Origin: an uncultured Pseudomonadota bacterium | Lineage (GTDB): Bacteria; Oederibacteriota; Muellerivitia; Muellerivitales; Muellerivitaceae | NCBI GenBank assembly: GCA_963843375.1 | Contig: CAWJKT010000009.1 | Span: forward strand, 32,001 to 96,000 | DNA: 64,000 nt | Reading direction: 5' to 3' | Shown: one piece after another, positions 4,249-30,188 of the stretch | Numbering within the stretch: the stretch's first letter is position 1 | Layout of the letters: each line of letters begins with the position of its first letter | Position numbers and translations under genes: made by a program | The notes under the pieces: generated by a model | The model's database searches: none | The model's input: only the letters and a program-made list of their open reading frames with translations | What the model was told of the DNA's origin: nothing

Positions 4249-4431
4249 TCAGATAGCCTTAAGGCTTTCCTGTATTTCCTTTTCCCCTTCTGCCCAATCG
4301 TGTAACTCGTCACCCGCTTGGGAATATCGTCCACGGTTCAACCAACTGTAATAAGCGGCTTCTTCGATCCTTTTGGTCGTCTCGCTAGCGCTGATAGGAG
4401 GAGCTGATTTGACTATTTTCTTAATGGACAT
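4249..4431 (-). CDS. DUF2934-like small protein
   Basis: RIEEAAYYSWLNRGR..GDELHDWAEGEKEI. Confidence 0.85.
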   Translation of the reverse strand: MSIKKIVKSAPPISASETTKRIEEAAYYSWLNRGRYSQAGDELHDWAEGEKEIQESLKAI

Positions 4432-4491
4432 ATGGATTTCCTTTTTGGTGATTTGGATTTAAAAATATTCATCGAAAGACTGATTAGTAAA

Positions 4492-4507
4492 AGCAAGAAA
4501 TAGGCCG
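4492..4507 (-). promoter_or_regulatory. Sigma54 -24/-12 promoter
   Basis: cGGcctatttcTTGCt on minus strand, canonical spacing. Confidence 0.7.
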
Positions 4508-4568
4508 TGTTTCCTTTGTCGTGTAACCTGATTTCATAAGCCCGATGGGAAGACTCTGTCCTTCCTTC

Positions 4569-4606
4569 TCGATCAGAATGATATTTTGATCGATCATTTT
4601 GATCGA
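4569..4606. promoter_or_regulatory. Putative enhancer (UAS), tandem ATCA-N3-TGAT
   Basis: tcgatcagaatgatattttgatcgatcattttgatcga; near-copies at 40008 and 41562. Confidence 0.7.
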
Positions 4607-4710
4607 AATAAACGAAATTCCGTAGAGGTTGAAAATTTACTATCGGCTCTTAAACGAATATTTCCTTCCGATTTTGAAGTGTTCGAAAGGTTCGTTCTGA
4701 AATTTATGGA

Positions 4711-4726
4711 CGGCATGTTCTTTGCT
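4711..4726 (+). promoter_or_regulatory. Sigma54 -24/-12 promoter
   Basis: cGGCAtgttctTTGCt, canonical spacing, upstream of LysM gene. Confidence 0.8.
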
Positions 4727-4784
4727 TTAATTCTTAAATTGAATTTCATTGATTGTGATATTCGGAATTAATAAGGAAAAAAAC

Positions 4785-5228
4785 ATGAGAAATAACGCGA
4801 AAACAGTGGTGTTTTTATCTTTAACCATGATGGGCTTAGGGGTTTATGGCTGTGGGACACCTAAAGTAGTCACCACCGAGGTTCCGAGCACGGCGGCAAA
4901 TAATGAGGTGGCGGTGGCAACACCCCAACCCCAAGCTCAGCCGCAACCGGCTCCGATGGAGAAGTATGTAGTTCAAAAAGGGGACACCCTTTGGGGGATT
5001 TCGGGCAAAACTGAAATTTACGGCGATTCCTTTCAATGGCCCCTGATTTTTAAGACCAACCGGGATCTCATTCAGGATCCGGACCTCATTTATCCCGATC
5101 AAACATTGACAATTGATAAGAGCGTTTCTGAGGCAGAAACGAAAAAAGCTGAAAAACTTGCCGATGAAACACCGAAATATGTTCCTCACGAGAAAGTTCG
5201 CAAAAAGCTCCCCATAGATTATTTTTAA
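4785..5228 (+). CDS. LysM-domain lipoprotein
   Basis: Lipobox VYGC; YVVQKGDTLWGIS...NRDLIQDPDLIYPDQ. Confidence 0.9.
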   Translation: MRNNAKTVVFLSLTMMGLGVYGCGTPKVVTTEVPSTAANNEVAVATPQPQAQPQPAPMEKYVVQKGDTLWGISGKTEIYGDSFQWPLIFKTNRDLIQDPDLIYPDQTLTIDKSVSEAETKKAEKLADETPKYVPHEKVRKKLPIDYF

Positions 5229-5286
5229 CGATGAAAGTTTTTAAATTATTTTGTTTCTTTTCGCTAAATCAAAATTGGGGGCATGA

Positions 5287-5559
5287 GTGGAAATCATAGA
5301 AAAAATGGAAATTAAAAACCGGTTGGGCCTTCACTTAAGGGCGGCTGCTGAACTGGTGAAGACGGCTTCCAAATACAAATGCCGAATATTGGTCAGAAAA
5401 AACCACCAGCAAGCGGATTGCAGGAGCATTCTAAATCTTATGGCGCTGGCGGCGAGCCATGGATCGGAACTCACGCTGATATTTGAAGGGGATGATGCCT
5501 GGCATGCGCATCAGGCAATTCAAAATCTTTTTCTCAACAAATTCGGAGAAAAGGAATAG
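5287..5559 (+). CDS. ptsH: HPr-family phosphocarrier
   Basis: GLHLRAAA (His15) and SILNLMAL (Ser46). Confidence 0.85.
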   Translation: MEIIEKMEIKNRLGLHLRAAAELVKTASKYKCRILVRKNHQQADCRSILNLMALAASHGSELTLIFEGDDAWHAHQAIQNLFLNKFGEKE

Positions 5560-5626
5560 CGGTTTGAAGATATGGCGGTATCGAATGATCCGGTGATTCC
5601 GTTCGTAAAAAAATTAAGGAGACACC

Positions 5627-8170
5627 ATGAGTCAAACATCCCCTATGAACCATTTGATATATGGGTTGCCTACGGATATCGAGGGATTCGATTCTCTCCT
5701 TGAATTGGCTTTGGATTTGCGCTGGTCTTGGAATCATGCCTCCGATGAAATATGGCGGAATCTGGATCCGGCGCTCTGGGATCAGACCCATCATCCCTGT
5801 GATATCTTGCATTCGGTTTCCCGGCAGAAAATAAGCGCTATGCTCGCCGATCCGGTTTTTCGAAAGAAGATCGACGCCCTTTTGTTATCTAAAAAGCAGG
5901 CGGAAGAAGCGCCTTCGTGGTTTCATAAGCATTATCCGGAATCCTCCCTGTCCTGTGTGGCGTATTTCAGCATGGAATTTATGTTAAGCGAAGCCCTTCC
6001 AATTTATTCGGGAGGCCTGGGCAATGTGGCCGGCGACCAGCTCAAAGCCGCCAGCGATCTGGGCGTTCCGGTGGTGGGCGTGGGCCTGCTCTATCAGCAG
6101 GGATATTTTCGCCAGGTGATCGACAAGCAGGGGAACCAACAGGCCATCTATCCTTACAACGACCCGGGTCAACTGCCCATTACGCCCCTGCGCCTTCCGA
6201 ACGGCGAATGGCTGAGGCTGGAAATCACCCTGCCTGGTCATTCGGTCTGGTTGCGGGCCTGGCAGGCGCAGGTCGGGCGGGTCAAGCTTTACCTTCTGGA
6301 CAGCAATGATGTGGCTAACATTCCCGCGCACCGGGAGATCACCAGTGAACTGTATGGAGGCGGTCCGGAACTTCGGTTGAAACAAGAGATGGTGCTTGGG
6401 ATCGGCGGGTGGCGTTTGCTGCGCGCGATGGGGCTCCAACCGAAAGTCTGTCACCTCAACGAAGGCCATGCGGCCTTCGCTGTGCTGGAACGGACGCAGA
6501 ATTTCATGGAGGAAACCGGCCAGCCTTTTGACACGGCCCTAGCCATCACGCGGGCGGGAAACTTGTTTACCACACACACGGCGGTGGTCGCCGGCTTTGA
6601 TCGTTTTGACCCGGTTCTGATAGAACAATATCTCGGTGGATACGCTGAAAAAAAACTCGGAATATCCCTAGGCAGTCTGCTGGCGCTGGGCCGTCAGAAC
6701 CCGGATGACCCGTCGGAAAGTTTCAATATGGCCTATCTGGCTATCCGTGGAAGCGGGTCGGTCAACGCGGTAAGCCGCCTGCATGGCCAGGTTAGCCGGC
6801 ATCTTTTTGAGCCGCTTTTTACGCATTGGCCTGAGGCTGAGGTTCCCATCGGCCACGTCACGAATGGAGTCCACATGCCCACCTGGGATTCGGCCCCGGC
6901 CGATGATCTTTGGACGGAAGCCTGTGGGAAAGACCGATGGCTGGGTCCGTTGGAAAATCTGGAGCAGAACATCCGCCGCATTTCCGACGATAGGTTCTGG
7001 CGGTTTCGGACCGCCGCTACCAAGTCTTTTGTTGAATACGCGCGTGAGAGGTTGTCCGCGCAACTGGCCGTTTCGGGCGCCTCACCGGAGGAGGTGGAAG
7101 CGGCCAAACATATCTTCGATCCCAACACGTTAACGCTGGGTTTCGCGCGCCGTTTCGCCACTTACAAACGGCCCGATATGCTGTTACACGATCCAGAGAG
7201 GTTGCTACGCCTGTTAACCAATCCCCAGCGTCCAGTCCAACTGGTCATCGCCGGAAAGGCCCATCCGGAGGATCAGGCTGGACAGGCCCTGATCCATGAG
7301 TGGATCAAATTTATCCGCAGACCCGAAGCCCGCCCGCATGTGGTCTTCCTCAGCGACTACGACATGCTTTTGAGCGAATACCTGGTGCAGGGAGTCGACG
7401 TTTGGATCAACACCCCCCGGCGGCCATGGGAAGCCTGCGGAACCAGCGGCATGAAGGTGCTTGTCAATGGAGGCCTCAATCTTTCTGAATTGGACGGTTG
7501 GTGGGCAGAGGCCTATACCCCGGAGGTCGGCTGGGCATTGGGAGACGGCAAAGAGCATGGCGATGATCCCGCCTGGGATGCCGATGAGGCCGAAGCGCTT
7601 TACGGCCTGCTCGAACAAAAAGTGATCCCGGAATTTTATGACCGCGATGGGAGCGGCATTCCGACGGCGTGGGTTCAACGGATGCGCGAGAGCATGGCTC
7701 GATTGACTCCGAATTTTTCCTCCAACCGCGCCGTACGGGAATACACCGAGAAACATTATCTCCCGGCCGCTTCGGCTTACCTTGAGCGCTCGGCAAACAA
7801 AGGCGTCGTGGGTAAACAAATGGTTGATTGGCAAAAAAAATTGGAACAGAAATGGTCCGCGATTCATTTCGGGGACTTGAAGATTGATAACCATGATAAC
7901 CAACACTTTTTTGAGGTTAAGGTCTATCTCAATGACATGGATCCACGATCCGTAAGAGTGGAGCTTTACGCTGAGGGCGCCAAGGGCGAGTCTCCTTTTC
8001 GGCAGGAAATGAAGAAAGTGAGCCCTTTGCCTGACACCATTGGCGGCTTTATTTACGGAGTGAAGATTTCTGAGGGTCGGCCACCGACGGATTATACGGC
8101 AAGAGTGATCCCACACCACGATGGAGTCGCCGTGCCTTTGGAAGAGAAACGGATCCTATGGCAACGATAA
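5627..8170 (+). CDS. glgP: Alpha-glucan phosphorylase
   Basis: YFSMEF, YSGGLG, HLNEGH, RRFATYKR, EACGTSGMK. Confidence 0.95.
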   Translation: MSQTSPMNHLIYGLPTDIEGFDSLLELALDLRWSWNHASDEIWRNLDPALWDQTHHPCDILHSVSRQKISAMLADPVFRKKIDALLLSKKQAEEAPSWFHKHYPESSLSCVAYFSMEFMLSEALPIYSGGLGNVAGDQLKAASDLGVPVVGVGLLYQQGYFRQVIDKQGNQQAIYPYNDPGQLPITPLRLPNGEWLRLEITLPGHSVWLRAWQAQVGRVKLYLLDSNDVANIPAHREITSELYGGGPELRLKQEMVLGIGGWRLLRAMGLQPKVCHLNEGHAAFAVLERTQNFMEETGQPFDTALAITRAGNLFTTHTAVVAGFDRFDPVLIEQYLGGYAEKKLGISLGSLLALGRQNPDDPSESFNMAYLAIRGSGSVNAVSRLHGQVSRHLFEPLFTHWPEAEVPIGHVTNGVHMPTWDSAPADDLWTEACGKDRWLGPLENLEQNIRRISDDRFWRFRTAATKSFVEYARERLSAQLAVSGASPEEVEAAKHIFDPNTLTLGFARRFATYKRPDMLLHDPERLLRLLTNPQRPVQLVIAGKAHPEDQAGQALIHEWIKFIRRPEARPHVVFLSDYDMLLSEYLVQGVDVWINTPRRPWEACGTSGMKVLVNGGLNLSELDGWWAEAYTPEVGWALGDGKEHGDDPAWDADEAEALYGLLEQKVIPEFYDRDGSGIPTAWVQRMRESMARLTPNFSSNRAVREYTEKHYLPAASAYLERSANKGVVGKQMVDWQKKLEQKWSAIHFGDLKIDNHDNQHFFEVKVYLNDMDPRSVRVELYAEGAKGESPFRQEMKKVSPLPDTIGGFIYGVKISEGRPPTDYTARVIPHHDGVAVPLEEKRILWQR

Positions 8171-10344
8171 ATAAAAACCCTCAACGAGAACTGGGCGATT
8201 ACATTTCCGATATGTCTGAGCACTCCGATATCCGGGTCGGTTCGCCGCTACCCCTGGGAACCCAGGAAAGGGGAGAAGGAGTTAATTTCGCCCTGTTTAG
8301 CCGCCATGCCACAAGGGTCCGGCTGGAGTTGTTTGACCATCCGGAGGACGCCGCGCCCGCCCGGTTTTTCGATCTGGACGCTTCTTTGAACCGCACTGGC
8401 GACGTATGGCACGTTTGGGTGAAAGGTATCAGTTCCGGCCAGCTCTATGCTTACCGCTTGGACGGTCCCTATTCTCCCGAGGAAGGACACCGTTTCAATT
8501 TTAAACGGCTTCTGCTTGATCCCGCCGCCGTTGCGATTTCAAATCTGCCCCCATGGGATTTTGCGTCTGCCCTTGGATACGATCCGTCGTCGCAGGGGAA
8601 GGACCTAACTCTCTCAAAGGAGGATAACGCCAAGTCGACGCCCAAATGTATCTTTCTAAACGAGTCTTTCGAATGGAAGGGGGACCAGCCTCTCCGCCAT
8701 CCTTGGTCGAAGACCCTCATTTACGAGACCCATGTCCGTGGTTTTACCATGGATCGGAAGTCGGGAGCAAAGCATCCGGGAACCTACCGGGGCATGATGG
8801 AAAAGATTCCCCATCTCAAAACACTGGGTGTTACCGCCGTGGAACTGATGCCGGTCTTGGAATTCAATGAAAATTTCCTCACACGGAAGGATCCGAACAC
8901 GAACCAATCCCTCAGGAATTACTGGGGATACGATCCTGTTACTTTCTTCGCGCCCAAAGCTTCCTATAGCAGTTCGGGCGGGATGGGCCAGCAGAAACTG
9001 GAGTTTAAGGAAATGATCCTGGCTTTCCACCAAGCGGGCATCGAAGTGATTCTGGACGTGGTGTTTAACCATACGGCGGAAGGAAACGAACTGGGTCCGA
9101 CGCTTTTCTTTCGCGGGATCGACAACTCGATTTTTTATACCCTTGCGGCGGACAAGCGCCGTTATAAGGATTACGCGGGAACCGGCAATACGATTAACGC
9201 CAACCATCCGGTGGTACGGGACCATATCCTGGCGGCCCTGCGTTATTGGACGGTCGAGATGCACGTGGATGGGTTTCGCTTTGATTTGGCATCGGTTCTC
9301 GGCAGGGGCGAAAGCGGAAGATTGTTGGCTAACGCGCCGCTTTTGGCCCGGATCGCCGAGGATCCAATCCTGAGGGACGTTAAGCTCATCGCGGAGGCAT
9401 GGGACGCCGGCGGGGCCTACGAGGTGGGAAGTTTTTCGGAACGGCGCTGGGCGGAATGGAACGGCCGTTATCGGGATGACGTGCGGCGTTTCTGGCGCGG
9501 TGATGACGGAATTCTCGGCTCGTTCGCCAGCCGACTCTGCGGAAGCGCGGATATTTATAGCAAGCCGGGCAAAGGACCGGAGGGAAGTATCAATTTTATT
9601 ACCTGCCACGACGGGTTCACTTTGAATGACCTGGTCAGCTATTCCGCCAAACATAACGAGGCGAACGGTGAAAACAACCAGGACGGGACAAATAACAACT
9701 TTAGCGGGAACTATGGCTTCGAGGGCTTAACGAAGGACGCCGGAATTGAGACGATTCGAAAACGCCAGATCAAGAATTTTATGCTGACCCTGATGATTTC
9801 GCGCGGCGTGCCGATGATCCTCGGCGGGGACGAATTCCGCCGCACCCAGGGCGGCAACAACAACGCCTATTGCCAGGACAATGAAACCAGCTGGTTGGAC
9901 TGGAAACATTTCGACCAGCATCAGGAAATATTCCGGTTTACCCAAGGCATGATCGCTTTTCGTAGAGCTCATCCTGTCCTGAGTAAAGAAGAATTCTACA
10001 AAAATGAAGGAATTAATTGGTTTGGTCCGGAGGGCGGACTGCCTCATTGGGCAGATCTCAAGTGCAAACAACTTGCCTGCGTTATTCATGAAAATGAAAA
10101 AGAAAGTATTTACCTTATGTTCAACGCGGGTACAGAAGCGGCTGATTTTGGTTTGCCGTCACCATCGGAAGGGTATGGCTGGAGTTTATCGGTCGATACA
10201 TTCCTACCTTCGCCAAGGGATATGGCCGAGGCGGGCAAAGAAATACTTTTGAAAAATTCAAAGATTTACCATGTTGAAGCCCGCTCCAGCGTCATTCTTC
10301 TGGCGGGCAAGCCTAAACACGGCGCGCGAAAGGATACCCCATGA
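8158..10344 (+). CDS. glgX: Glycogen debranching enzyme
   Basis: NYWGYDP, DVVFNHTAEG, DGFRFDLAS, HDGFTLND; start may be 8212. Confidence 0.95.
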   Translation: MATINKNPQRELGDYISDMSEHSDIRVGSPLPLGTQERGEGVNFALFSRHATRVRLELFDHPEDAAPARFFDLDASLNRTGDVWHVWVKGISSGQLYAYRLDGPYSPEEGHRFNFKRLLLDPAAVAISNLPPWDFASALGYDPSSQGKDLTLSKEDNAKSTPKCIFLNESFEWKGDQPLRHPWSKTLIYETHVRGFTMDRKSGAKHPGTYRGMMEKIPHLKTLGVTAVELMPVLEFNENFLTRKDPNTNQSLRNYWGYDPVTFFAPKASYSSSGGMGQQKLEFKEMILAFHQAGIEVILDVVFNHTAEGNELGPTLFFRGIDNSIFYTLAADKRRYKDYAGTGNTINANHPVVRDHILAALRYWTVEMHVDGFRFDLASVLGRGESGRLLANAPLLARIAEDPILRDVKLIAEAWDAGGAYEVGSFSERRWAEWNGRYRDDVRRFWRGDDGILGSFASRLCGSADIYSKPGKGPEGSINFITCHDGFTLNDLVSYSAKHNEANGENNQDGTNNNFSGNYGFEGLTKDAGIETIRKRQIKNFMLTLMISRGVPMILGGDEFRRTQGGNNNAYCQDNETSWLDWKHFDQHQEIFRFTQGMIAFRRAHPVLSKEEFYKNEGINWFGPEGGLPHWADLKCKQLACVIHENEKESIYLMFNAGTEAADFGLPSPSEGYGWSLSVDTFLPSPRDMAEAGKEILLKNSKIYHVEARSSVILLAGKPKHGARKDTP

Positions 10345-12002
10345 ACTCGCGCTCTTCGGGGATACTTCTTCATCCAACCTCCCTTTCCAACCCATATCCC
10401 ATCGGCGACTTGGGACCTGCCGCAAACGCCTTTGTGGATTTTCTAGTTCTGAGCGGGCAGAGCTGGTGGCAGATGCTGCCAATTGGCCCGACGGGGATAG
10501 GGAATTCGCCATACCAATCATCGTCCGCCTTTGCGGGAAATCCGTTTCTGTTGAGTCCCGACTTGTTGATGAAGCATGGATTTCTAAACCGTGAGGATAT
10601 CGAGCTGCCTGTTCCGGGTGCCCCTGGAAAGGTGGACTATTACACAGCGGAACAACTGAAACTGAAGTGGTTGAAAAAAGCATTTGAACGTTTTGAAAAA
10701 AAGGGAGGAATGGCCAAGCGGCTGGAATTTGAGGCTTTCGTTCGCGCCGAATCCTACTGGCTTGACGATTTTTCCCTGTTCGTAGCCGTCCAGGACAATG
10801 AAGGCACCGGGGACTGGACCCAATGGGACCTTGAACTGAGAACACGACAGCCTAAAGCCCTTGTTCGAGCGCGTAAACACTTCACGGATGACATCCGTTA
10901 CCACCAGTTTATCCAGTGGCAGTTCTCAAAACAGTGGAAAGAGTTGCGGGCCTATTGCGATTCCAAGGCAGTCCAGCTGATCGGCGATATTCCCCTGTTC
11001 GTGTCCCATGAGAGCGCCGATGTGTGGGTTCACCCGGAGATTTTTAAATTGGACGTCGATGGGAACATGACGGTGGTCGCCGGGGTTCCTCCGGATTATT
11101 TCACGAAAACAGGACAGCGATGGGGCGAGCCCGTTTACCGATGGGATGTGCTGCAAGACCAAAATTACAACTGGTGGATAGAACGGCTGAGGACTGCTTT
11201 GGGACGGTTCGGCGTCATCCGTTTGGATCATTTTATCGGCTATGTGAGAACTTATGAGGTACCTTCGGGTGACCTTACGGCAGAAAACGGACAATATCAA
11301 CCGGGCGGCGGCAGGGCTTTTTTTGAAGCAGTGTTAAAAGCTATCGGCTCTTTGCCGTTTATCGCGGAGGACCTGGGGGTTCTTACCCCCGAAGTGATTA
11401 CCTTAAGGGAACAGCTTAACCTTCCCGGTTCGCGGGTGCTCCAGTTTGAGTTCGAATCGGACATTGAAAATAATATTTTTCCGTCGAAAGAACTCCCGGT
11501 GAACTCGGTGGTTTATACCGGAACCCACGATAACGACACTACGGAGGGTTGGTACAGAAAGTTACCGGCCACCCAGCGAGAAAGCCTTCGAAAACATCTG
11601 GGTGCCAACGACAAGACGGTTGTCCGGGCCATGATCGCAGCGGCCTTTGCTTCCCGGGCCGACAAGGTCATCCTGCCGGCGCAAGACCTTTTGGATTTGG
11701 GAACGGAGGCACGAATGAATTTTCCCGGCACCACAGAAGGGAACTGGCAATGGCGTCTGAAGGATGACGCGTTGACGCCGGAACTTGCGCAATGGCTGCG
11801 AAATTTAACTGGAACCTGTGGACGGCTGGGGAGTGAAGGTCACCGCTCGTCTCCCTTGCGTCCCGATGACAACCCGTCGGAACAGAACGCGAAGTTGGCC
11901 TATGAACCATACGAAAGGCAAAACCATTTAATTGACCAAACCGATAAATATTGGCACCCCGCGGAAGGGGAATTGAAGGCGGAGGTGAAAGGGAACCAGT
12001 GA
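10341..12002 (+). CDS. malQ: 4-alpha-glucanotransferase with C-terminal DUF2934-like tail
   Basis: GILLHPTSL, GVPPDYF, RLDHF, IAEDLG, YTGTHDN. Confidence 0.95.
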   Translation: MNSRSSGILLHPTSLSNPYPIGDLGPAANAFVDFLVLSGQSWWQMLPIGPTGIGNSPYQSSSAFAGNPFLLSPDLLMKHGFLNREDIELPVPGAPGKVDYYTAEQLKLKWLKKAFERFEKKGGMAKRLEFEAFVRAESYWLDDFSLFVAVQDNEGTGDWTQWDLELRTRQPKALVRARKHFTDDIRYHQFIQWQFSKQWKELRAYCDSKAVQLIGDIPLFVSHESADVWVHPEIFKLDVDGNMTVVAGVPPDYFTKTGQRWGEPVYRWDVLQDQNYNWWIERLRTALGRFGVIRLDHFIGYVRTYEVPSGDLTAENGQYQPGGGRAFFEAVLKAIGSLPFIAEDLGVLTPEVITLREQLNLPGSRVLQFEFESDIENNIFPSKELPVNSVVYTGTHDNDTTEGWYRKLPATQRESLRKHLGANDKTVVRAMIAAAFASRADKVILPAQDLLDLGTEARMNFPGTTEGNWQWRLKDDALTPELAQWLRNLTGTCGRLGSEGHRSSPLRPDDNPSEQNAKLAYEPYERQNHLIDQTDKYWHPAEGELKAEVKGNQ

Positions 12003-12153
12003 TTGTTCACGAGAAAATGAAGCCGTTTTCATAGTGCAATAAAATTAGTAGCTGATTGTTAGGATCGTGTTGAAACCAATTTTTTATACAAGCTGTTAAC
12101 AAGCGACTCTCAGTAAGCCAAAACGAAGTTTTAGGAAAGAAAGGATTCATTTT

Positions 12154-12978: not shown

Positions 12979-13620
12979 ATGAAAAAAAACAACATGTTCA
13001 CTTGTTTGTTTGTGGATGTGGGAGGTGTTTTGCTCACCAATGGATGGGATCATCGCGCGCGCAGGCGAGCGGTTTCCCAATTCAAACTCGAGTGGAATGA
13101 GATCGAAAGCCGTCACGGATTGTTTGTGGAACCCTATGAGTTGGGATTGATCGGTCTGGAAGAATATCTAAACGGCGTGGTCTTTTATCAAAAACGCGAT
13201 TTTACCCGATCCAGCTTTCGAAATTTCATATTCGCTCAGTCAAAATCGCACCGCAAAATGATGGAGTTCATTGTTCAACTCAAAGCCATTCACGGTCTCA
13301 AGATCGTTGTAGTCAGCAACGAAGGTCGGGAAGTAAACGCTTACCGGATTCGTAAATTTAAATTGGCCGGTTTGGTGGATTTTTTTATTTCTTCCTGTTT
13401 TGTCCACCTCCGCAAACCCGATGTGAATTTTTATAAAATGGCCCTGGATACGGCCCAGATATCCCCTGAGAAGATCGTTTATATCGAAAACACCCCACTA
13501 TTCGATAAGGTCGCGGAAGGATTAGGGATCAAAAGTATTTTTCATAAAAATTATCAATCCACCCGCGCCTGCTTGTCCTATTGGGGTTTGTCGGCGAACG
13601 AAGGGATTGAATATGAATAA
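12979..13620 (+). CDS. HAD-family phosphatase
   Basis: FVDVGGVL, SN, RKPD motifs. Confidence 0.85.
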   Translation: MKKNNMFTCLFVDVGGVLLTNGWDHRARRRAVSQFKLEWNEIESRHGLFVEPYELGLIGLEEYLNGVVFYQKRDFTRSSFRNFIFAQSKSHRKMMEFIVQLKAIHGLKIVVVSNEGREVNAYRIRKFKLAGLVDFFISSCFVHLRKPDVNFYKMALDTAQISPEKIVYIENTPLFDKVAEGLGIKSIFHKNYQSTRACLSYWGLSANEGIEYE

Positions 13621-14821
13621 AAAACAAATAATGACCATTAATGCGGGCTCCTCTAGTCTTAAATTCGCCGTATTTGAAGCTGGTCAGCCGCCTCGACGCG
13701 TTCTTTGGGGCGGCATTGATCGGATTGGACAAACCGGAGCGGTTTTTCAGGTGAAGGGTTTGAATCCAACTGACGAATTTTCCAGAGTTTTGACCAAGTC
13801 CGACCATCAGGCCGCTTTAGAGGTTTTTATGATATGGGTCAAGGAGCGGGGCGGGGGAGCAAGTCTGTCGGCGGTTGGGCACCGGATGGTCCAGGGCGGC
13901 CCCCAACACAGCGAACCGGAGAAAGTCACCCATGAGTTGGTTGAAGCTCTCTTCAAATTAAGTCCTTATGATCCGGAACACATGCCGATGGAGATTCTCA
14001 TCGTGGACGCTTTCCACAGGCAATTTCCCAATCTGTCCCAGGTGGTTTGTTTCGATACGGCCTTTCATCACGATATGCCTCTGGTGGCGCGACTCCTGCC
14101 GATCCCCCGAAGTTATGAGGCGAAGGGTATTCATCGTTATGGTTTTCACGGCATTTCCTATGCCTATCTCATGGAGGAACTTTCACGTTTGGGGTGTATG
14201 GAAGAGGCTGAGGGTCGGGTGATTTTGGCCCATCTGGGCAACGGGGCCAGTCTGGCTGCGGTTCTTAAGGGCAAATCCGTTGATACCAGCATGGGTTTTA
14301 CGCCGTCCTCGGGAGTTTTAATGGGAACCCGCTCCGGAGATTTGGATCCGGGACTGGCTTTGTACCTGGAAAAAACCGAAGGCATGGACACCAAGGCTTT
14401 TAACACGATGGTCAATTTTCATTCCGGACTGCTGGGCGTGTCCGGAACCAGCCCGGACATGCGCGACTTGCTGAAACTGGAGGAAAAGGACGGAAGGGCA
14501 GCCGAAGCGGTTTCGTTGTTTTGCTATCAGGTCAAGAAGTGGATCGGGTCTTTCGCGGCGGCCTTGGGCGGACTGGACACTCTGGTTTTTTCGGCGGGCA
14601 TCGGTGAAAACTGTCCGGCGGTTCGCGAAAGAATTTGCGAGGGATTGGGGTTTCTAGGCATCGAACTCGATAAAAATCTAAACAGTGCCAACAAGAGTGT
14701 GATTTCCGTTTCTTCCGGCAAGGTTAAGGTTTTTGTCATACGCACGGATGAAGAACTCATGATCGCCAAGACGGTTTGCCATGTGCTCCGTATTGGTTTT
14801 ACGGGTGAAGCGCCAAACTGA
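13607..14821 (+). CDS. ackA: Acetate kinase
   Basis: INAGSSSLK, FDTAFH, YGFHG, HLGNGAS, GIGEN, TDEE. Confidence 0.95.
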   Translation: MNMNKKQIMTINAGSSSLKFAVFEAGQPPRRVLWGGIDRIGQTGAVFQVKGLNPTDEFSRVLTKSDHQAALEVFMIWVKERGGGASLSAVGHRMVQGGPQHSEPEKVTHELVEALFKLSPYDPEHMPMEILIVDAFHRQFPNLSQVVCFDTAFHHDMPLVARLLPIPRSYEAKGIHRYGFHGISYAYLMEELSRLGCMEEAEGRVILAHLGNGASLAAVLKGKSVDTSMGFTPSSGVLMGTRSGDLDPGLALYLEKTEGMDTKAFNTMVNFHSGLLGVSGTSPDMRDLLKLEEKDGRAAEAVSLFCYQVKKWIGSFAAALGGLDTLVFSAGIGENCPAVRERICEGLGFLGIELDKNLNSANKSVISVSSGKVKVFVIRTDEELMIAKTVCHVLRIGFTGEAPN

Positions 14822-15636: not shown

Positions 15637-15650
15637 TAAGGAGTATTTTC

Positions 15651-18071
15651 ATGAACGAATATAACATGGTCCGTGCGAAGGTTCTTTTAGACAGGACGAA
15701 TCAAAAAATCGAACCTTTGTCCGAAGAGTTACTTCGAAAAATGAACGCCTATTGGCGCGCCGCGAACTATTTATCCGTCGGACAAATTTATCTTTATGAC
15801 AATCCGCTATTGAAAGAGCCGCTGAAATTGTCGCATGTGAAGCCGTTGGTGGTGGGGCATTGGGGCACGACGCCGGGGCAAAACTTCATCTACGTGCACT
15901 TGAACCGTGTCATTAAGAAATACGATTTAAATATGTTTTACATCGCGGGTCCGGGCCACGGTGGCCCAGCAATCGTGGGAAACGTTTATCTTGAGGGCAC
16001 TTGGAGTGATGTTTATCCGAATGTGACACAGGACGAAGCTGGAATGAAAAAACTGTTCAAGCAATTTTCGTTTCCTGGCGGGATTTCGAGTCACGTGGCG
16101 CCAACGACGCCCGGATCCATTCATGAGGGCGGTGAATTGGGATATTCGCTTAGCCACGCTTTTGGAGCGGCTTTCGACAATCCCGACCTGATCGTGGCCT
16201 GTGTCATCGGCGACGGGGAGGCGGAAACGGCCTCTTTGGCGACCTCCTGGCAATCCAATAAATTTCTAGATCCGGTTACGGACGGTGCCGTTTTGCCGAT
16301 CCTGCATCTCAACGGCTATAAGATCAGCAATCCAACCGTTTTGGCGCGTATTGAGCATGAAGAGCTCGACCAATTCCTGCGCGGCTGCGGATGGGCACCT
16401 TACTTCGTGGAAGGCGATGATCCGGAAACGATGCATCAACTCATGGCCGATACTTTGGAAAAGGTCATCGGGGACATCCGGCAAATACATAGCAACGCGC
16501 GGCAAAAGAATGATCTCACCAGGCCCCGCTGGCCCATGATTATCCTCAAGTCACCGAAGGGCTGGACGGGACCGAAGGAAGTTGACGGCCTGCCAGTTGA
16601 GGGCACTTTCCGGGCACACCAGGTGCCGCTTCTGGTTGATCCTGAACATCCCGATCATGTCAAGCAGCTTGAAAGCTGGATGAAAAGTTACAAAGCGGAA
16701 GAATTGTTCGATAAGAACGGCAGGCTCATGCCGGAGCTGGCCGAGCTGGCGCCAAAGGGCGACCGGCGGATGGGCGCCAATCCCCACGCCAACGGCGGAC
16801 TTTTGTTGCACGATCTGCGAATGCCGGACTTTCACGCGCATGCGGTGAATGTGCCTTCGCCGGGCGCTGTTAACGGACAGGACACGCTCGTACTGGGGAA
16901 GTTTCTCCGTGACGTGGCCAAGCTCAATCAGAATCAGCGTAATTTTCGCATCTTCGGTCCCGATGAGACGCTTTCGAATCTCCTTGGCGCCGTTTTTGAA
17001 ACCACTAGCCGGCAGTGGAACGCCCGGACCGAAAAAAACGATGAATTCCTCGCCCCTGACGGACGGGTGCTGGACTCGATGCTCAGCGAGAACCAGTGCG
17101 AGGGCTGGTTGGAAGGATATCTGTTGACCGGGCGGCATGGACTTTTCAACAGCTATGAGGCGTTCATCCGCATCGTTGATTCGATGTTCAGCCAGCACGC
17201 CAAGTGGCTGAAGGTATGTTTGGAGCTGCCCTGGCGCCGAAAAATTTCGTCGCTGAACTATCTGCTTGCCTCCCATGTCTGGCAGCAGGATCACAACGGC
17301 TTCACGCACCAGGACCCCGGTTTCCTCGATCACGTTATCAATAAGAAGGCCGACATCGTGCGCTGTTACCTTCCGCCGGACGCCAACTGCCTGTTGTCGG
17401 TGATGGACCACTGCCTGCGGAGCCGGAATTACGTCAACGTTGTCGTGGCTGGTAAACACGCGTTGCCCCAATGGCTTAATATCGAAGAGGCCATTGTGCA
17501 TTGCACCGAAGGCATCGGCATTTGGTCTTGGGCCAGTAATGACCAGGGCGCGGAGCCGGATGTAGTCATGGCCTGCTGTGGCGATACGCCCACTCTGGAG
17601 ATTTTGGCCGCGGTTTCTATCCTCCGCGAACATCTACCTGATCTTAAAATCCGCGTTATCAACGTGGTTGACCTGATGAAACTGGAATCCAACACAGAGC
17701 ATCCACATGGATTGAACGCGAACGATTACGACGCGCTCTTCACGAAAGACAAGCACATTATTTTTGGTTTTCATGGGTATCCCTGGTTGATCCATCGGTT
17801 GACCTACCGCCGGCACAACCAGAACCTGCATGTTCGTGGCTACAAGGAAGAGGGCACGATTACCACGGCATTTGATATGAGAGTGCAAAACGATCTGGAT
17901 CGGTTTCATCTGGTGCAGGACGTGATTGATCGGGTACCGGGGTTTGGTTCCAAGGGCGATTATCTGAAGCAAAAAATGAAGGACAAACTAATTGAGCATA
18001 AGCAGTACATCGACCAACACGGCCAGGACATGCCGGAAATAAGGAATTGGAAGTGGGGAGCAAAACCATGA
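15651..18071 (+). CDS. xfp: Phosphoketolase
   Basis: [34 protein letters not shown]. Confidence 0.95.
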
Positions 18072-21805: not shown

Positions 21806-21866
21806 TGTCGAAACGCCAATCGGCCGCTTTCGTCAGCGGCGTTGCTCAAAAAAACAGGAGTTAATC

Positions 21867-22901
21867 ATGGGACATCAAATGCATGCGGCAATGGTTGAGC
21901 AGTTTGGAAAACCCTTGTTACTAAAAGAATTGGATATTCCCTCCGTTGGTCCCGGCCAGATATTGATTAAAACCGAGGCTTGCGGGGTATGTCATACGGA
22001 TCTCCATGCGGCGCATGGAGATTGGCCGGTAAAGCCCACACTTCCGTTTATCCCCGGTCATGAAGGCATAGGGATCGTCATTGCTGTCAGTTCGGGTGTG
22101 AAGGCTGTGAAAGAAGGTGACCGGGTCGGGGTGCCCTGGCTCTATTCGGCCTGCGGCCATTGCGAGTATTGCCTGTCCGCCTGGGAGACGGTTTGTCCGG
22201 ATGCGCAATTCGGCGGTTACACCAAGAACGGCGGTTTTGCCGAATATATCCTCGCTGACCCCAACTACGTCGCCCATATTCCCGCCGGTCTCGCCGCAAG
22301 TGAAGCGGCCCCGATCATTTGCGCGGGTATCACTACCTATAAAGGGATCAAGGAGACTGGGGCAAAGCCCGGTGAATGGATCGCTATTTCGGGTGCTGGC
22401 GGCCTGGGGCATCTGGCGATCCAGTATGCCAAGGTCATGGGACTTCATGTCTGTGCCATTGATATTAGTGACGGCAAACTTGCCCACGCTAAGCGACTGG
22501 GCGCCGATTTCACGTTCAATGCCAAGACGGGTGATCCGGCTGCGGCCGTGAAAAAGATGACCGGAGGGGGAGCCCATGGGGTTCTTATTACAGCCCCTTC
22601 GCTAAGCGCGTTTAAACAGGGTGTGGGCATGACCCGCAAGCGGGGTACCTGCGTGCTGGTGGGCCTGCCGCCGGGCGAGTTTCCTGTTCCGCTCTTCGAC
22701 GTGGTGGCGAACTGTATCACCATCCGGGGTTCTTTTGTGGGCACCCGCAAGGATATGGCTGAGGCGCTGGCCTTCGCCGCCGAGGGAAAGGTCAAAGCGG
22801 ATATCGAGCTACAGCCCTTGTCCGCGATCAACAACATATTCGAACGGCTTGAAAAGGGAGATGTGCCGTCACGGGTAGTTATCGAGTTCGCGAAAAGTTA
22901 G
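21867..22901 (+). CDS. adhP: Zn-dependent alcohol dehydrogenase
   Basis: CGVCHTDLH, GHEG, C..C..C cluster, GAGGLG. Confidence 0.9.
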   Translation: MGHQMHAAMVEQFGKPLLLKELDIPSVGPGQILIKTEACGVCHTDLHAAHGDWPVKPTLPFIPGHEGIGIVIAVSSGVKAVKEGDRVGVPWLYSACGHCEYCLSAWETVCPDAQFGGYTKNGGFAEYILADPNYVAHIPAGLAASEAAPIICAGITTYKGIKETGAKPGEWIAISGAGGLGHLAIQYAKVMGLHVCAIDISDGKLAHAKRLGADFTFNAKTGDPAAAVKKMTGGGAHGVLITAPSLSAFKQGVGMTRKRGTCVLVGLPPGEFPVPLFDVVANCITIRGSFVGTRKDMAEALAFAAEGKVKADIELQPLSAINNIFERLEKGDVPSRVVIEFAKS

Positions 22902-22934
22902 AGCGAAAAACATAAGGTTCGCCAGATATGGAAA

Positions 22935-24413: not shown

Positions 24414-24435
24414 ATAAGACTTACTGGAGAAAACA

Positions 24436-25419
24436 ATGAACGCGATGGTACTGAATCAAATTAAAACCACTCTTCAGTGGATTACTATGGCAGATCCCGA
24501 ACCGGGACCGGGACAGATCCGGGTCAAGGTAGGTGCCTGCGGTGTCTGCCGCACGGACTTGCATGTAGTTGACGGGGAATTGCCCAATCCCCAAGTGCCG
24601 ATCATTCCCGGCCATGAGATTGTGGGAAGGATCGATCTGGTGGGACCGGGAGTCGAAGGTTTAAAAGTCGGGGAAAGGGTCGGCGTTCCCTGGCTGGGCC
24701 ATACCTGCGGAGTTTGTCCCTACTGCCGGAGTGGCCACGAAAATCTTTGCGATCATCCCATTTTTACTGGTTACACCCGCGACGGGGGCTTTGCCACCTC
24801 GGTTGTGGCCGACGCGCGTTTCGCCTTTCCACTGGGCGAGTCGGGGAGTGATGTTTCTTTAGCTCCGTTACTTTGCGCCGGCCTTATCGGCTGGCGGGCT
24901 CTCGTAGCAGCAGGAGACAGCAAAAAACTAGGGCTTTATGGTTTCGGCGCGGCGGCTCATATCATCGCTCAAGTGGCCAAATGGCAGGGACGATCGGTTT
25001 TTGCTTATACTAAACCAGGCGACCTGACGACCCAGAATTTCGCCAGGGGATTAGGGGCGACCTGGGCGGGAGGATCGGACGAAACACCTCCCGAACTGCT
25101 GGACTCGGCGATCATCTTCGCCACATTGGGCGATCTAGTGCCTTCGGCGCTCAAGACCGTTCGCAAAGGGGGCCGGGTGGTTTGCGCCGGCATTCACATG
25201 AGCGACATTCCGAAATTTTCTTATGACCTGCTTTGGGGTGAAAGGCAAATCGTTTCAGTCGCCAATTTGACCCGCCAGGATGGAATTGATTTTCTAAGTC
25301 AAGCACCTCAAATGAATATTGTGACAGAGACAACCACTTATCCGCTCCGGCAGGCCAACGAAGCCCTGGCCGATCTGCGCGCAGGCCGGTTCAATGGCGC
25401 GGCGGTGCTAGTGCCATGA
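24436..25419 (+). CDS. Zn-binding alcohol dehydrogenase family protein
   Basis: CGVCRTDLH, PGHE, YGFGAAAH. Confidence 0.9.
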   Translation: MNAMVLNQIKTTLQWITMADPEPGPGQIRVKVGACGVCRTDLHVVDGELPNPQVPIIPGHEIVGRIDLVGPGVEGLKVGERVGVPWLGHTCGVCPYCRSGHENLCDHPIFTGYTRDGGFATSVVADARFAFPLGESGSDVSLAPLLCAGLIGWRALVAAGDSKKLGLYGFGAAAHIIAQVAKWQGRSVFAYTKPGDLTTQNFARGLGATWAGGSDETPPELLDSAIIFATLGDLVPSALKTVRKGGRVVCAGIHMSDIPKFSYDLLWGERQIVSVANLTRQDGIDFLSQAPQMNIVTETTTYPLRQANEALADLRAGRFNGAAVLVP

Positions 25420-26456
25420 ACACATTAGTGCTTGTCGAAACCGCGAAGTGGTTGATGGCAGGCCATAAGGGCCTGCTGGCGATGGACGAAAGCAACCCTA
25501 CCTGCAACAAACGATTTGCCGCGCTGGGAATTCCGCAGACCGAGGAAATGCGCCGCGCCTACCGGGAGCTGATCGTCACCACGCCCGGTTTGGGCGAGAG
25601 TATTAGCGGTGCGATCCTCTGCGACGAGACCATCCGCCAGAAGAAAAAAGACGGCACACCATTTGTGAAAGCACTTACCGACGGCGGAATTATCGCCGGT
25701 ATTAAAGTGGACAGGGGCGCCAAGGCTATGGCAGGTCATGCGGGGGAGAAAATAACCGAGGGCCTAGACGGTTTGCGCGAAAGACTGGAGGAATATTCCC
25801 GGATGGGAGCCCGTTTCGCCAAATGGCGCGCGGTGATCACAATGGGCAAGGGCGTTCCCAGCCGGGGTTGTATTCAGGCAAATGCTCAGGCCCTGGCCCG
25901 CTATGCCGCTTTATGCCAGGAAACCGGGTTGGTTCCTATTGTGGAGCCGGAAGTGCTTATGGACGGCGACCATACGCTGAAGAGATGTTTTGACACAACG
26001 GAAGAAGTCCTGCGGACTGTTTTTGAGGAGCTTTACAACCAGAACATCCTGCTGGAGGGAATGATACTCAAGCCCAACATGGTGCTACCCGGTTTGGCCT
26101 GCCCCCATCTGGAAGGGGTGGACGAGGTAGCCGACGCCACGGTGCGGTGCCTATTGCGGACAGTGCCAGCAGCCGTTTCGGGTATCGCGTTCCTGTCCGG
26201 CGGACAACCTCCCGAAACGGCATCGGCCCGTTTGAACGCAATGAATATCCGGTTCAAACATAAACTGCCTTGGGCCCTTACCTTTTCCTTTTCCAGAGCC
26301 ATCCAACAGCCAGCCCTGGATATTTGGAGGGGAGAGGAAGCTCATCTGCAAGCGGCCCAATTTGTCCTGCATCATCGCGCTACCTGCAACCGATCTGCAC
26401 GACGTGGTGAATATAGCGAAGCGGAGGATACGCATACGGCCAATACACAACGATAA
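25416..26456 (+). CDS. Class I fructose-bisphosphate aldolase
   Basis: LAMDES, FAKWR, PIVEPEV, LKPNM, FLSGGQ. Confidence 0.92.
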   Translation: MNTLVLVETAKWLMAGHKGLLAMDESNPTCNKRFAALGIPQTEEMRRAYRELIVTTPGLGESISGAILCDETIRQKKKDGTPFVKALTDGGIIAGIKVDRGAKAMAGHAGEKITEGLDGLRERLEEYSRMGARFAKWRAVITMGKGVPSRGCIQANAQALARYAALCQETGLVPIVEPEVLMDGDHTLKRCFDTTEEVLRTVFEELYNQNILLEGMILKPNMVLPGLACPHLEGVDEVADATVRCLLRTVPAAVSGIAFLSGGQPPETASARLNAMNIRFKHKLPWALTFSFSRAIQQPALDIWRGEEAHLQAAQFVLHHRATCNRSARRGEYSEAEDTHTANTQR

Positions 26457-26508
26457 AACAAAAGTCGCGTTTTCAAAATCGGCAAACGCCATGACTTTTG
26501 AATCGAAG

Positions 26509-26635
26509 CTGGAAGCGAAGTCTACCACAGGAGATGACCTGAAAACCTTCCCGATGGCGGAAGTGGAAAAAAACTGGGTTCGACGCAGGAGAGCGTAAGC
26601 AAGGCTGGGACGCAGAAATGGTTGATCCAAGGAAA
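26509..26635 (+). pseudogene. Frameshifted duplicate of the H+-ATPase N-terminus
   Basis: DDLKTFPMAEVEK / LGSTQESVSKAGTQKWL versus [31 protein letters not shown]. Confidence 0.65.
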
Positions 26636-26942
26636 GGAATTTAATGATGAATCATATGCCTGGATTAATGTGCGCATGGATGCGTGGAGGAAATGATCCT
26701 GGATAGCCAGTTTGAAGAGGGGGGCGGACGGATGGATGGACAGATGGAATTGCCTTGGGATGGACGGATGGGGAAGAATTTTGACAAATCAGGGATTTTT
26801 GATTCGGTCAGGGATATTCATATTGGTGATAGCACTATTGATCGTATTGATCCGTGTGTGGTCAAAAAAATAAGCATGTGTTCGTTTCGGATTTTTGAAG
26901 TGAATGTAAAAGAACGGTAGAAATCAGGAAAGGATATTACTA

Positions 26943-29900
26943 ATGAAGGAACAAGAGTCAAAAAAGAAACCTCAGTCGAAACCGGGAGAAAAGCCTGCTC
27001 CGGAGGATGAATTGAAAACCCTTCCCCTAGAGGAAGTTGAGAAGAAACTGGGGTCATCGCCGGAGGGCATCAGCCAGGCTGAGGCCCAGAAGCGGCTGGC
27101 CCAATATGGGCCCAACGAGATCGAGGAAAAGAAAACTAATCCCTTCCTGAAGTTTCTCTCCTATTTTTGGGGGCCTATTCCCTGGATGATCGAAGCGGCA
27201 GTGATTCTTTCGGCGGTCGCCCGGCATTGGCCGGACTTTTTTATCATTCTCCTACTGCTTTTTTCCAACGCAATCGTCGGGTTCTGGGAAGAAAGACAGG
27301 CGGGCAATGCCATTGAGGCCCTGAAGGCCCAGCTGGCGGTCAAGGCCCGGGTGTTGAGAGACGGGAAATGGCTCAATCCCCCCGCGAAGGAACTGGTCCC
27401 GGGCGATGTCATTCGCATTCGCTTGGGCGACATCGTGCCGGCGGATGCGCGCCTGCTTTCGGGTGACGAAGTGTCGGTAGACCAGTCCGCCTTGACGGGA
27501 GAATCCTTACCCGCCACAAAAAAACCGGGCGACGCGGTATTTTCCGGATCCATTCTCCGGCGGGGCGAGATCGGCGCGCTGGTCTACGCTACAGGCGCAA
27601 ATACCTATTTCGGCAAAACGGCTCAGTTGGTGCAGGAAGCGCACACGGTTAGCCATTTCCAAAAAGCGGTGCTGAAAATCGGTGATTATTTAATCATTTT
27701 GGCGGCGGTCCTGGTGGCTGTCATCATCATCGTCGCCATTCTCCGTGGCGACCCGATCCTTAACACTCTGCAGTTCGCTTTGGTTTTAACCGTGGCCGCC
27801 ATTCCGGTGGCAATGCCCACGGTGCTTTCGGTGACCATGGCGGTTGGCGCGCGTTTATTGGCTAAAAAACAGGCGATCGTCAGCAAACTGGTGGCTATTG
27901 AGGAATTGGCGGGAGTGGATGTGCTGTGCGCTGACAAGACCGGCACCCTGACCCAGAACAAGTTGACTTTGGGTGACCCTTTCAGCCTGGACAATATTCC
28001 CCCCGAGCAGTTGATTCTCAACGGAGCTCTGGCGTCCCGCGCGGAAAATAACGACACCATTGACCTGGCCGTCCTAGGGGGACTGAAAGATAAAGAGGTT
28101 TTGAAAGACTATCAGGTGGTTCATTTCGTCCCCTTCGACGCGGTGCATAAACGCACCGAGGCGACCGTCAAAGGCAAGGATGGAAAAGAATTCAAGGTCA
28201 CCAAGGGCGCGCCACAAGTGATCTTGGAATTATCGGCCAACGCGGCCCAGGGGAAACCAGCTGTCGAAAAGGCGGTCAACGAGTTCGCGTCGCGTGGGTT
28301 CCGTTCCTTGGGAGTGGCCCGGTCCGAAGGGGGAGGCCCCTGGAAACTCCTGGGAGTCCTGCCCCTGTTTGATCCGCCCCGGGAAGACGCCAAGGAAACC
28401 ATCGCGACCGCGCTGGCGATGGGTGTCAAGGTCAAGATGGTAACAGGCGACGCGTTGGCCATCGCCAAGGAAACCGCCAAAAAACTGGATATGGGAACGA
28501 ATATCCTGGATGCGGCCGGCCTCGGCGACTCGAAGCACGATGAGAACGACGCCACAGCCGAATCTATCGAGAAGGCCGACGGATTCGCCCAGGTATTCCC
28601 GGAGCATAAATTTCACATTGTTGATGTCCTACAGAAGCGCGGACACTTGGTTGGTATGACAGGCGACGGGGTGAATGACGCCCCCGCGCTGAAGAAAGCG
28701 GATTGCGGTATCGCGGTCTCCGGCGCGACGGACGCGGCGCGGGCGGCGGCCTCCATCGTATTAATGACGCCGGGCCTGTCGGTGATTATCGACGCCATCA
28801 AGGAAAGCCGGAAAATTTTCCAGAGGATGAACAGTTACGCTATTTACCGCATCGCCGAAACCCTGAGGGTGTTGTTTTTCATGACGGCGTCAATCCTAGT
28901 CTTCAATTTTTATCCGGTAACCGCGGTCATGATCGTCATGCTGGCCCTGCTCAATGACGGGGCCATCCTGTCCATCGCCTATGACAACGTCCATTACAAG
29001 AACCAGCCCGAGGAATGGAACATGCGTTTGGTGCTGGCCATCTCAACCGTGCTGGGCGTTCTGGGGGTTATTGCGGCATTCGGATTGTTTGTCCTTGGGG
29101 ACCGGGTATTTCACATGGATCGGCCCCACCTCCAAACGCTGATGTATTTGAAGCTGTCCGTAGCAGGACATATGACCATCTTCCTCACCCGCACCCGCGG
29201 CCGCCTTTGGTCGATCCGCCCCGCCAAAATTTTATGGATGGCCGTACTGGGAACCCAGACCGTGGCGACCTTGATCGCGGTTTACGGTTTTTTGATGACG
29301 CCGCTGGGATGGGGTTGGGCCGGATTTGTCTGGGGATACGCCATCGTTTGGGCGCTCCTGAATGACCAGGTGAAAGTGCTGGCTTACCGGATTTTTGATC
29401 CTGCAAAAAAAGATGGCGCTAAGCCTGAGGAAAAACCTGAATCCAAAGGGGAACCGAAGTCTGAGACTAAAGCGGAAGCCAAATCCGAAGTTAAGCCGGA
29501 TACAAAACCCGAGGATAAGTCCGAAGTCAAAGCGGGGGCGAAACCTGATGCCAAAGCCGGGGATAAGCCAGAACCCGCAGCGGAAACCAAGCCGGAAGCT
29601 AAGGCCGAGCCTAAGCCGGATAAAGCCAAATCAGAGCCAAAGCCCGAAGCCAAGGCAGAGGCAAAACCCGAAGTGAAAGACGAACCCAAACCTGAAGTTA
29701 AATCAGAACAAAAACCTGATGCCAATGCTGGAAATAAGCCTGACCCTAAAGGGGAGCCAAAGCCTGAATCGAAAGCGGATGCTAAACCCGAAACTCCACC
29801 CGAGCCTAAGTCTGACGCTCAACCGGAGCCCAAACCGAAATCAGATTTAAAACCGCAAATTGCCCAGCGGGCCTATGAACTTTATGAAAAGCGGGGCCGC

Positions 29901-30188
29901 CAGAGCGGTCAATCGGACCAGGACTGGGACAAAGCCGAACGCGAGCTTCGAAAAAATAGCGCTGAATCCAAGACCAAAGCCGAACCCGCGCCTGAAGTAA
30001 AAGCCGAGTCCAAACCCGAAGTGAAACAGGAGCCTGCACCTGAAGCCAAAGGAAAGACGAAGGATTTGACCCCGCAAATCGTCAAGCGGGTCCATAAACT
30101 TTATGAGGAACTGGGACGGGAAGAGGTTCGCGAAGTTGAGGAAATGGAAAAGGCCGATCGGGAAACCAAGAAAAAGGATAAATTGTGA
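26943..30188 (+). CDS. P3A-type proton-efflux P-type ATPase with Pro/Lys/Glu-rich tail and DUF2934-like modules
   Basis: [25 protein letters not shown]; long low-complexity C-terminus. Confidence 0.95.
29410..29843 (+). repeat. Low-complexity KPE/AEPK peptide repeats in ATPase tail
   Basis: Repeated KPE(A/V)K / EPKPE units. Confidence 0.8.

Follow-up and report, generated by a model that had tools for sequence, protein, structure and literature searches.

A fused subtype of the DUF2934 module, a possible docking tag, is shared by a glucan enzyme and two unrelated ATP-driven ion pumps

The stretch of DNA analyzed here (64,000 nucleotides; 'the window') comprises positions 32001-96000 of contig CAWJKT010000009.1 (contig C9) of an uncultured bacterium, genome G000. 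It encodes a module of the DUF2934 family (PF11154), 36 residues in length, which occurs as a free protein, at the C-terminus of the 4-alpha-glucanotransferase MalQ and in two copies on the tail of a P3A plasma-membrane-type H+-ATPase. We found that the same fused subtype is carried by subunit b (AtpF) of an N-ATPase encoded beyond the window, and thus by two unrelated ATP-driven ion pumps and MalQ. Purifying selection acts on the module in both pumps, most MalQ homologs conserve it, the three fusions are optional and inherited independently, and the MalQ copy has decayed in the source lineage. We tentatively propose, as a real possibility that falls short of probable, that this predicted helix-loop-helix is an optional docking tag on the pump tails of a likely mobile island and binds a shared cytoplasmic partner. 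DUF2934 is very common and no function for it was found in print (supplementary gene tables may list more); a selected subtype on two pumps and a glucan enzyme offers a small, testable handle on the family.

Module copies in the window

The copies and their host genes are as follows.

4249-4431, minus strand: free DUF2934 protein, 60 residues (module at about 4261-4386); 27.0 bits on PF11154; 'free' subtype
10341-12002, plus strand: malQ, 4-alpha-glucanotransferase (GH77), 553 residues; TIGR00217 355.8 bits, passing the equivalog cut-off of 205.65
11868-11987, plus strand: C-terminal DUF2934 of MalQ, fused subtype, decayed; E=1.1e-4 and 0.0076 with custom profiles
26943-30188, plus strand: P3A plasma-membrane-type H+-ATPase, 1081 residues, with a cytoplasmic tail of 263 residues; TIGR01647 1072.3 bits
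29397-29840, plus strand: linker of the pump tail rich in Lys, Pro, Glu and Ala (K/P/E/A), 148 residues, predicted flexible and variable in length; these four residue types make up 110 of the positions
29841-29960, plus strand: intact DUF2934 copy 1 of the pump tail, fused subtype; 53.8 bits; predicted helix-loop-helix
30060-30170, plus strand: divergent DUF2934 copy 2 of the pump tail; E=5.6e-7 to the copy-1 profile

The pump also passes the TIGR01647 equivalog cut-off (615.5 bits) and contains the DKTGT motif; its transport of protons is predicted. A first-pass annotation, made from the letters of this DNA, had described four DUF2934-like stretches (one free, one on MalQ, two on the pump), and their translations are as described there. 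Their assignment to DUF2934 by the Pfam model, with a cut-off of 22 bits, held for the free protein (27.0 bits) and for pump copy 1 (residues 971-1003; 47.5 bits within the whole protein), whereas PF11154 remained silent for the MalQ tail and pump copy 2 even at E<=10, so that these two failed the HMM check put forward in the first-pass annotation. Both were recovered by custom profiles: with one built solely from the tails of proton-pump homologs, MalQ came third when all 76,957 frames of the six-frame translated genome were ranked (domain E=0.0076), and pump copy 2 scored E=5.6e-7. Since they are homologous by these profiles despite the Pfam miss, we classified them as decayed and divergent copies, respectively.

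That the module recurs on MalQ-family enzymes and on the H+-ATPase, as had been claimed, was borne out by the homologs. PF11154 was present in 101 of the 120 best MalQ homologs, C-terminally in the tails inspected, and in 118 of the 120 best pump-tail matches; as the query included the tail in both searches, these numbers describe the best matches and not whole families. The consensus of the MalQ-homolog tails is almost the same as that of the pump tails. Pump copy 2 lacks the conserved Asp-Trp and is kept as a subtype of its own in 115 of 119 tail homologs. An assembly error is an unlikely cause of the decay seen in the MalQ tail, because contigs from two other sequencing runs cover the stretch with one difference each and the tail of the nearest MalQ homolog (P0121) is likewise decayed. 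The length of the pump linker varies: contigs of two runs skip 171 bases, and homolog P0001 is 36 residues longer. The free gene is covered by a contig from an RNA library (4169-4465, 3 differences), where DNA carry-over is possible.

Fused and free subtypes

PF11154 had nine matches above and two below cut-off in the genome, which represent the pump, AtpF and nine free proteins. AtpF, encoded 26 kb past the window (contig 122439-123611; L003:6439-7611), carries an intact fused-subtype module and a K/P/E/A tail. It is subunit b of an N-ATPase, the alternate F1F0 type (TIGR03321, 329.6 bits versus a cut-off of 224.7), and its operon passes the alternate alpha and beta families TIGR03324 and TIGR03305 and includes an AtpR-family gene (PF12966). 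AtpA and AtpD of the same operon have K/P/E/A-rich tails that lack the module. The AtpF module is 60% identical to pump copy 1 of this genome and shares the flanks of the pump module, K/P/E/A linker included. Mean identity between pump and AtpF modules amounts to 65%, and between either of them and the free copies of the genome to 25-26%. Judged by sequence, then, the P3A pump, AtpF and MalQ carry one fused subtype, and the free protein belongs to a different one. Recent gene conversion between the pump and AtpF copies was considered and ruled out, as 16 of 23 synonymous codons differ.

The free protein had been cast as a modulator of the fused copies. This was not supported, given its subtype and the finding that in 15 of 50 genomes with a module-bearing pump the pump tail is the sole PF11154 match; these are metagenome-assembled genomes, and in three of the 15 only part of the candidates was scored. 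Genes for superoxide dismutase, Hsp20, pirin and ice-binding proteins lie close to several of the free paralogs. Rather than a dedicated modulator, the free protein of the window is probably a paralog of another subtype with a role in general stress. A block of cytochrome oxidase and cytochrome b genes is present twice in the genome (window 50890-56987 and L005:5367-11474), the second time next to three ice-binding-like genes and a gene for a free module.

Selection and conservation

Selection was assessed by pN and pS, the nonsynonymous and synonymous differences given as uncorrected proportions on 36-38 codons. For AtpF modules, pN was 0.02-0.18 at a pS of 0.20-0.81 in all non-identical pairs of seven genes, comparable to the core of the protein. 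For P3A copy 1 the pooled values were 0.134 and 0.384 (313 non-independent pairs, 43 genes), and for pump copy 2 pS was above pN in every pair shown. In 85 full-length MalQ homologs the modal identity was 0.82 for the module and 0.85 for the enzyme core versus 0.53 for the linker. The MalQ of the window departs from this: its module is 43% identical to those of 81 homologs, versus 67% for the core. In a comparison with P0121, faster decay of the module was not significant by itself (7 of 36 versus 47 of 495 positions differ, p=0.08). Among 119 MalQ homologs 27 fail a strict module pattern, some of them through one residue.

Inheritance in the family and the phylum

Among 31 genomes of the family, AtpF fusions were found in G000, G021, G038, G127 and G130, P3A fusions in G000, G008, G015, G033 and G115, and an intact MalQ fusion in G038. 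A P3A pump above cut-off was not found in G021, G127 and G038, and MalQ was not found in G015, G008 and G021 (99% complete), so that G015 and G008 possess the pump module and lack MalQ. In G127 the MalQ tail is decayed, and the MalQ frame of G033 (502 residues) is too short to hold the tail. In the phylum (99 genomes) 18 P3A genes were found, five with copy 1, one with a copy-2 match only and 12 with neither, one of which has a stop inside the module.

Predicted structure and relatives of the module

AlphaFold2 predicts pump copy 1 to be a helix-loop-helix (pLDDT 91.5, helices at 3-17 and 25-39). Nearly invariant are Ala-Tyr in helix 1, a Gly at the turn, and the Asp-Trp and Ala-Glu of helix 2. 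A sequence search of the PDB returned no real match; the best Foldseek hit had an E-value of 5.4, and the best VIA-align hit (Z 5.7, rmsd 1.7, 40 residues aligned) stood amid generic helical pairs. In a model of a three-copy array protein (pTM 0.59), helix 2 of one copy continues into helix 1 of the next. A homodimer prediction for pump copy 1 (105-row alignment) scored 0.02 versus a mark of 0.42, with no controls folded, and was used neither for nor against binding.

Distribution over other genomes and host proteins

Scanning GTDB for the fused subtype returned 475 matches, of which the best 80 loci were analyzed. These span many phyla and contain module frames of 78 P3A pumps, two AtpF proteins, one Cu-type P1B pump and one Hsp20, next to one C-terminal pump fragment and five short frames (pump-tail fragments or a remnant). 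The 50 genomes examined above were taken from the 78 distinct genomes behind these loci. Among the larger frames that were fetched, four encode Cu-ATPases that carry the module N-terminally; Hsp20 fusions, more P3A pumps, a class II aldolase and one MalQ were also present. With a generic profile, the 120 best longer proteins comprised 70 proteins in which the module precedes a transmembrane helix and an OmpA domain (TM-OmpA), ten P3A pumps, one AtpF and one MalQ. In a library of 1.84 billion sequences 26,661 DUF2934 cluster representatives were recovered; 106 of the best 150 have at most 150 residues, and the longer members include TIR, kinase, receiver, NACHT-associated and ricin-B fusions and tandem arrays. 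The DUF2934 family is thus promiscuous, and the survey of fusion partners that the first-pass annotation had suggested confirms the module on P3A, AtpF, MalQ, Cu-ATPase, Hsp20, TM-OmpA and other proteins without confining it to glucan or polyphosphate (polyP) enzymes. In plasmid records the whole pump tail had no match and the module alone matched 18 records, all below 60% identity. The ESM Atlas returned nothing usable for the pump module; the free protein led to clusters of DUF2934 and hypothetical proteins.

Several of the recovered host proteins have a recurrent build. The 224-residue arrangement of module, membrane helix and OmpA domain is widespread (L013:3299-4147, L015, 70 matches) and might serve to attach a cytoplasmic module to the cell wall. 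The Cu-type P1B ATPases (L105-L108, L035) have the module N-terminally, ahead of a His-rich stretch, and three of the four that were fetched share a contig with module-bearing P3A pumps. In Hsp20-like proteins (L115, L116, L119, L121, L122, L099) the module lies in the N-terminal region; three of these lie within 13 kb of one Acidobacteriota genome. The giant proteins P0359, P0360, P0368, P0406 and P0439 (1,100-1,650 residues) have 3-6 inserted module copies and otherwise no Pfam match. Module-bearing P3A genes occur as pairs, in tandem or a few genes apart, in L031, L033, L099 and L109. The P3A cores of L031 (an Ignavibacteriota bin) and L033 (a Sulfuricaulis bin) are identical, which points to transfer or misbinning.

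Possible functions of the module

On hosts as unlike one another as Cu-ATPases, Hsp20, a class II aldolase and TM-OmpA, TIR, kinase and receiver proteins, the module lies at a cytoplasmic end, either terminally or on a linker, which is what one would expect of a portable binding unit. A docking or localization unit, as originally suggested, is probably what it is. In the docking reading that we tentatively propose, the subtype would have begun as a P3A tail and would have been copied onto neighboring genes of the cassette. Among the observations in favor of the proposal is the predominance of pump fusions in the subtype (78 P3A frames in the best 80 of the 475 GTDB matches). The K/P/E/A linker could act as a flexible tether that gives the module reach, the module may dock on a common cytoplasmic partner, and docking might gather or tune the ATP-consuming pumps of the cassette in energy stress. 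If such a shared partner exists, bacteria would physically organize their ATP consumers in energy stress. Several observations weigh against the proposal. No partner of the module was identified, and no structural relative with a known function was found by PDB sequence search, Foldseek or VIA-align. The module is dispensable, given that 12 of the 18 P3A genes of the phylum lack it, and the pump core is under stronger selection than P3A copy 1 (pN of 0.048 versus 0.134). Two module-less pumps are sister to module-bearing ones in a rough P3A tree, a quick tree of 49 rows with one long branch misplaced and no root, in which module presence is not clustered beyond shuffles. The seed pattern of the GTDB scan was biased to pump-type copies.

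The module could instead bind alpha-glucan, putting MalQ on glycogen and tethering glycogen particles and their enzymes to the pumps. We consider this rather unlikely. It would fit the frequency of the fusion among the best MalQ homologs (101 of 120) and a weak relationship to DUF7067 (PF23229) of the plant alpha-glucan water dikinase (GWD), which matched 3 of 24 modules with a best E-value of 3.7e-4; one multi-copy relative reached 27.9 bits versus a cut-off of 27, but the window copy remained below it at 16.0 bits, and over its own genome PF23229 matched pump copy 1 alone (E=0.49). A glycogen synthase domain was present in all 22 genomes with a module-bearing pump that were tested, but because 10 of 14 controls were positive as well this count barely discriminates; motif patterns had missed the domain and a family search recovered it. 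GlgC above cut-off was not found in five genomes. The partners are mostly unrelated to glucan (among the 120 longer matches 70 TM-OmpA and a single MalQ), GlgP and GlgX of the island lack the module, and Pfam matches of the tails at E<=10 included neither carbohydrate-binding module (CBM) families nor CHAD. CHAD is a polyP binder. Of the granules that the first-pass annotation had suggested as targets, polyP has nothing in its favor beyond the adjacency of ppk2, and the case for glycogen is weak and indirect. The fuller scheme, in which DUF2934 is an unrecognized alpha-glucan-granule targeting module and kin to the GWD domain, with long flexible tethers that moor glycogen particles and their catabolic enzymes to P- and N-type pumps as a fuel depot at the membrane, supplying the pumps with ATP in anoxia or acid stress, is distinctly unlikely. 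Regulation in cis is unlikely as well; here the module would autoinhibit the proton pump in the manner of the plant R domain, with the remaining fusions as side products. The subtype is dominated by pump fusions, in short pump forms the module is C-terminal and directly follows the last membrane helix, and plant and fungal P3A pumps have regulatory tails according to the parts available of PMC10654040 and PMC9708826, but the spacer between pump and module ranges from around 10 to more than 150 residues and the AtpF and MalQ copies are conserved or subject to purifying selection even where no P3A pump was found above cut-off (G021, G127, G038).

Binding of membranes or lipid domains through the aromatic and basic loop, which would localize the hosts, is improbable. 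Membrane proteins and small heat-shock proteins account for many of the hosts, and the tandem arrays of large proteins hint at avid binding to a repetitive surface; helix 2 is acidic, however, and a 150-residue tether is hard to explain on a protein that is already embedded in the membrane. The circuit originally envisaged, with MalQ linked to the pump through the module and the free protein as competitor, appears quite improbable. All three genes fit into 26 kb, the free gene is located upstream of glgP both in the window and in G021, and genome G073 has an intact MalQ fusion and two P3A fusions on a single contig. On the other hand, neither MalQ nor a genuine free copy was found in the best 80 pump loci (49 of them at least 15 kb; the distance from MalQ to the pump module in the window, around 18 kb, is beyond their reach), a MalQ-sized fusion frame occurred in 1 of the 50 genomes among the matches listed, and near-complete relatives (G015, G008) have the pump module without MalQ. 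Because the MalQ copy is decayed here (and also in G127), the fusions are independently inherited and the free protein is of another subtype, the wiring is unsupported in this genome. Finally, that the fusions are neutral recombination debris inside a mobile island is very improbable indeed, despite the repeated loss on MalQ and on P3A, considering that the AtpF and P3A copies have a pN well below pS and that the pump and AtpF copies of this genome keep 60% of their residues in spite of their synonymous divergence.

The island and its neighboring genes

The window contains a long run of co-oriented genes, in the order glgP, glgX, malQ, ackA, xfp, katE, dehydrogenases, fba, the P3A H+-ATPase and ppk2, followed by rpiB, pgi and pgm and then tkt, tal, gnd, zwf and respiratory genes. 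Besides the hosts of the module, genes of this run include the following.

5627-8170, plus strand: glgP, glucan breakdown (Pfam)
8158-10344, plus strand: glgX, glucan breakdown (Pfam)
13607-14821, plus strand: ackA, substrate-level ATP, cassette context (Pfam)
15651-18071, plus strand: xfp, substrate-level ATP, cassette context (Pfam)
30185-31069, plus strand: ppk2 (ADP-polyphosphate phosphotransferase), NF042973 493.9 bits, overlapping the stop of the pump gene

Searches with Pfam and, over all genome frames, with the subtype profiles detected no module in the GlgP and GlgX proteins, nor did Pfam and the subtype profiles in the PPK2 protein. A second ackA/xfp set with the N-ATPase operon lies on the same contig past the end of the window. 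Among the 80 pump loci the neighbors include Xfp (33), PPK2 (25), Fba (24) and AckA (18).

The island is likely a mobile sugar-to-ATP survival cassette. An integrase remnant lies at the start of the window (6-290) and pieces of a type IV coupling protein at 58160-59533. The block with ackA, xfp and the N-ATPase (contig 114033-126248) is 98.9% identical over 12.2 kb to that of G021, a genome of the same genus (L011:2842-15057), and atpF within it is identical between the two. As the other two long matches to G021 loci reach 77-80% identity only, the block was likely transferred recently. Near-identical DNA is contained in peat and permafrost sequencing runs. A serine recombinase is encoded at L004:1160-2005, and these three elements flank or interrupt the island.

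Comparison with known systems

In the literature, as far as the sources were accessible, DUF2934 appears as an entry in gene tables or as a flanking gene in a sentence on gene context; in the accessible part of one study a DUF2934 gene was induced together with CsbD, ferritin-like and sigma-32 genes (PMC9100948). No paper on DUF2934 fusions was found, including under PF11154, IPR021327, DUF7067 and PF23229. The free protein and pump copy 1 resemble the described family in passing its cut-off; what differs here is the fused subtype common to P3A, AtpF and MalQ.

The window pump belongs to the same subfamily (TIGR01647) as plant AHA2 and fungal Pma1 and like these has a long cytoplasmic C-terminal extension, but its module also occurs on unrelated proteins. 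In the accessible passages of a 2023 review (PMC10654040), prokaryotic P3A pumps are contrasted with plant and fungal pumps that have extended regulatory termini, and transport by the prokaryotic pumps is said to remain to be determined; bacterial P3A pumps with extended tails are described here. The plant R domain is defined, in the portion available of PMC9708826, to include a penultimate-Thr 14-3-3 site, whereas the window pump lacks this site and has a Lys/Asp-rich end with Lys in the penultimate position. Arabidopsis AMY3 has an alpha-alpha hairpin that likely binds BAM9 according to the available text of PMC12046210; it is likewise a short two-helix unit on the spacer of a glucan enzyme and a proposed protein docking site, which we regard as an analogy only. 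DUF7067 of GWD is similar by its weak profile match and different in that the window copy stays below its cut-off. The stretch between the two CBM45s of GWD is a partly folded, flexible linker for which the accessible part of PMC13553574 gives no other function. Burkholderia cenocepacia has the nearest island tested, a large cluster of stress and energy genes known as the lxa low-oxygen locus; judging from the portion available of PMC3721108, it shares acetate kinase, storage-polymer genes, a small heat-shock protein and a cation ATPase with the present island, but is centered on polyhydroxyalkanoate.

Two further observations concern enzymes of the cassette. The transaldolase frame (window 45322-46782) opens with an Hva1 Tudor domain (PF11160), apparently a second small stress module on a cassette enzyme. 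The gene for glucose-6-phosphate dehydrogenase (window 48216-49798) is split across two frames near a run of G, which reflects either a broken gene or an assembly error.

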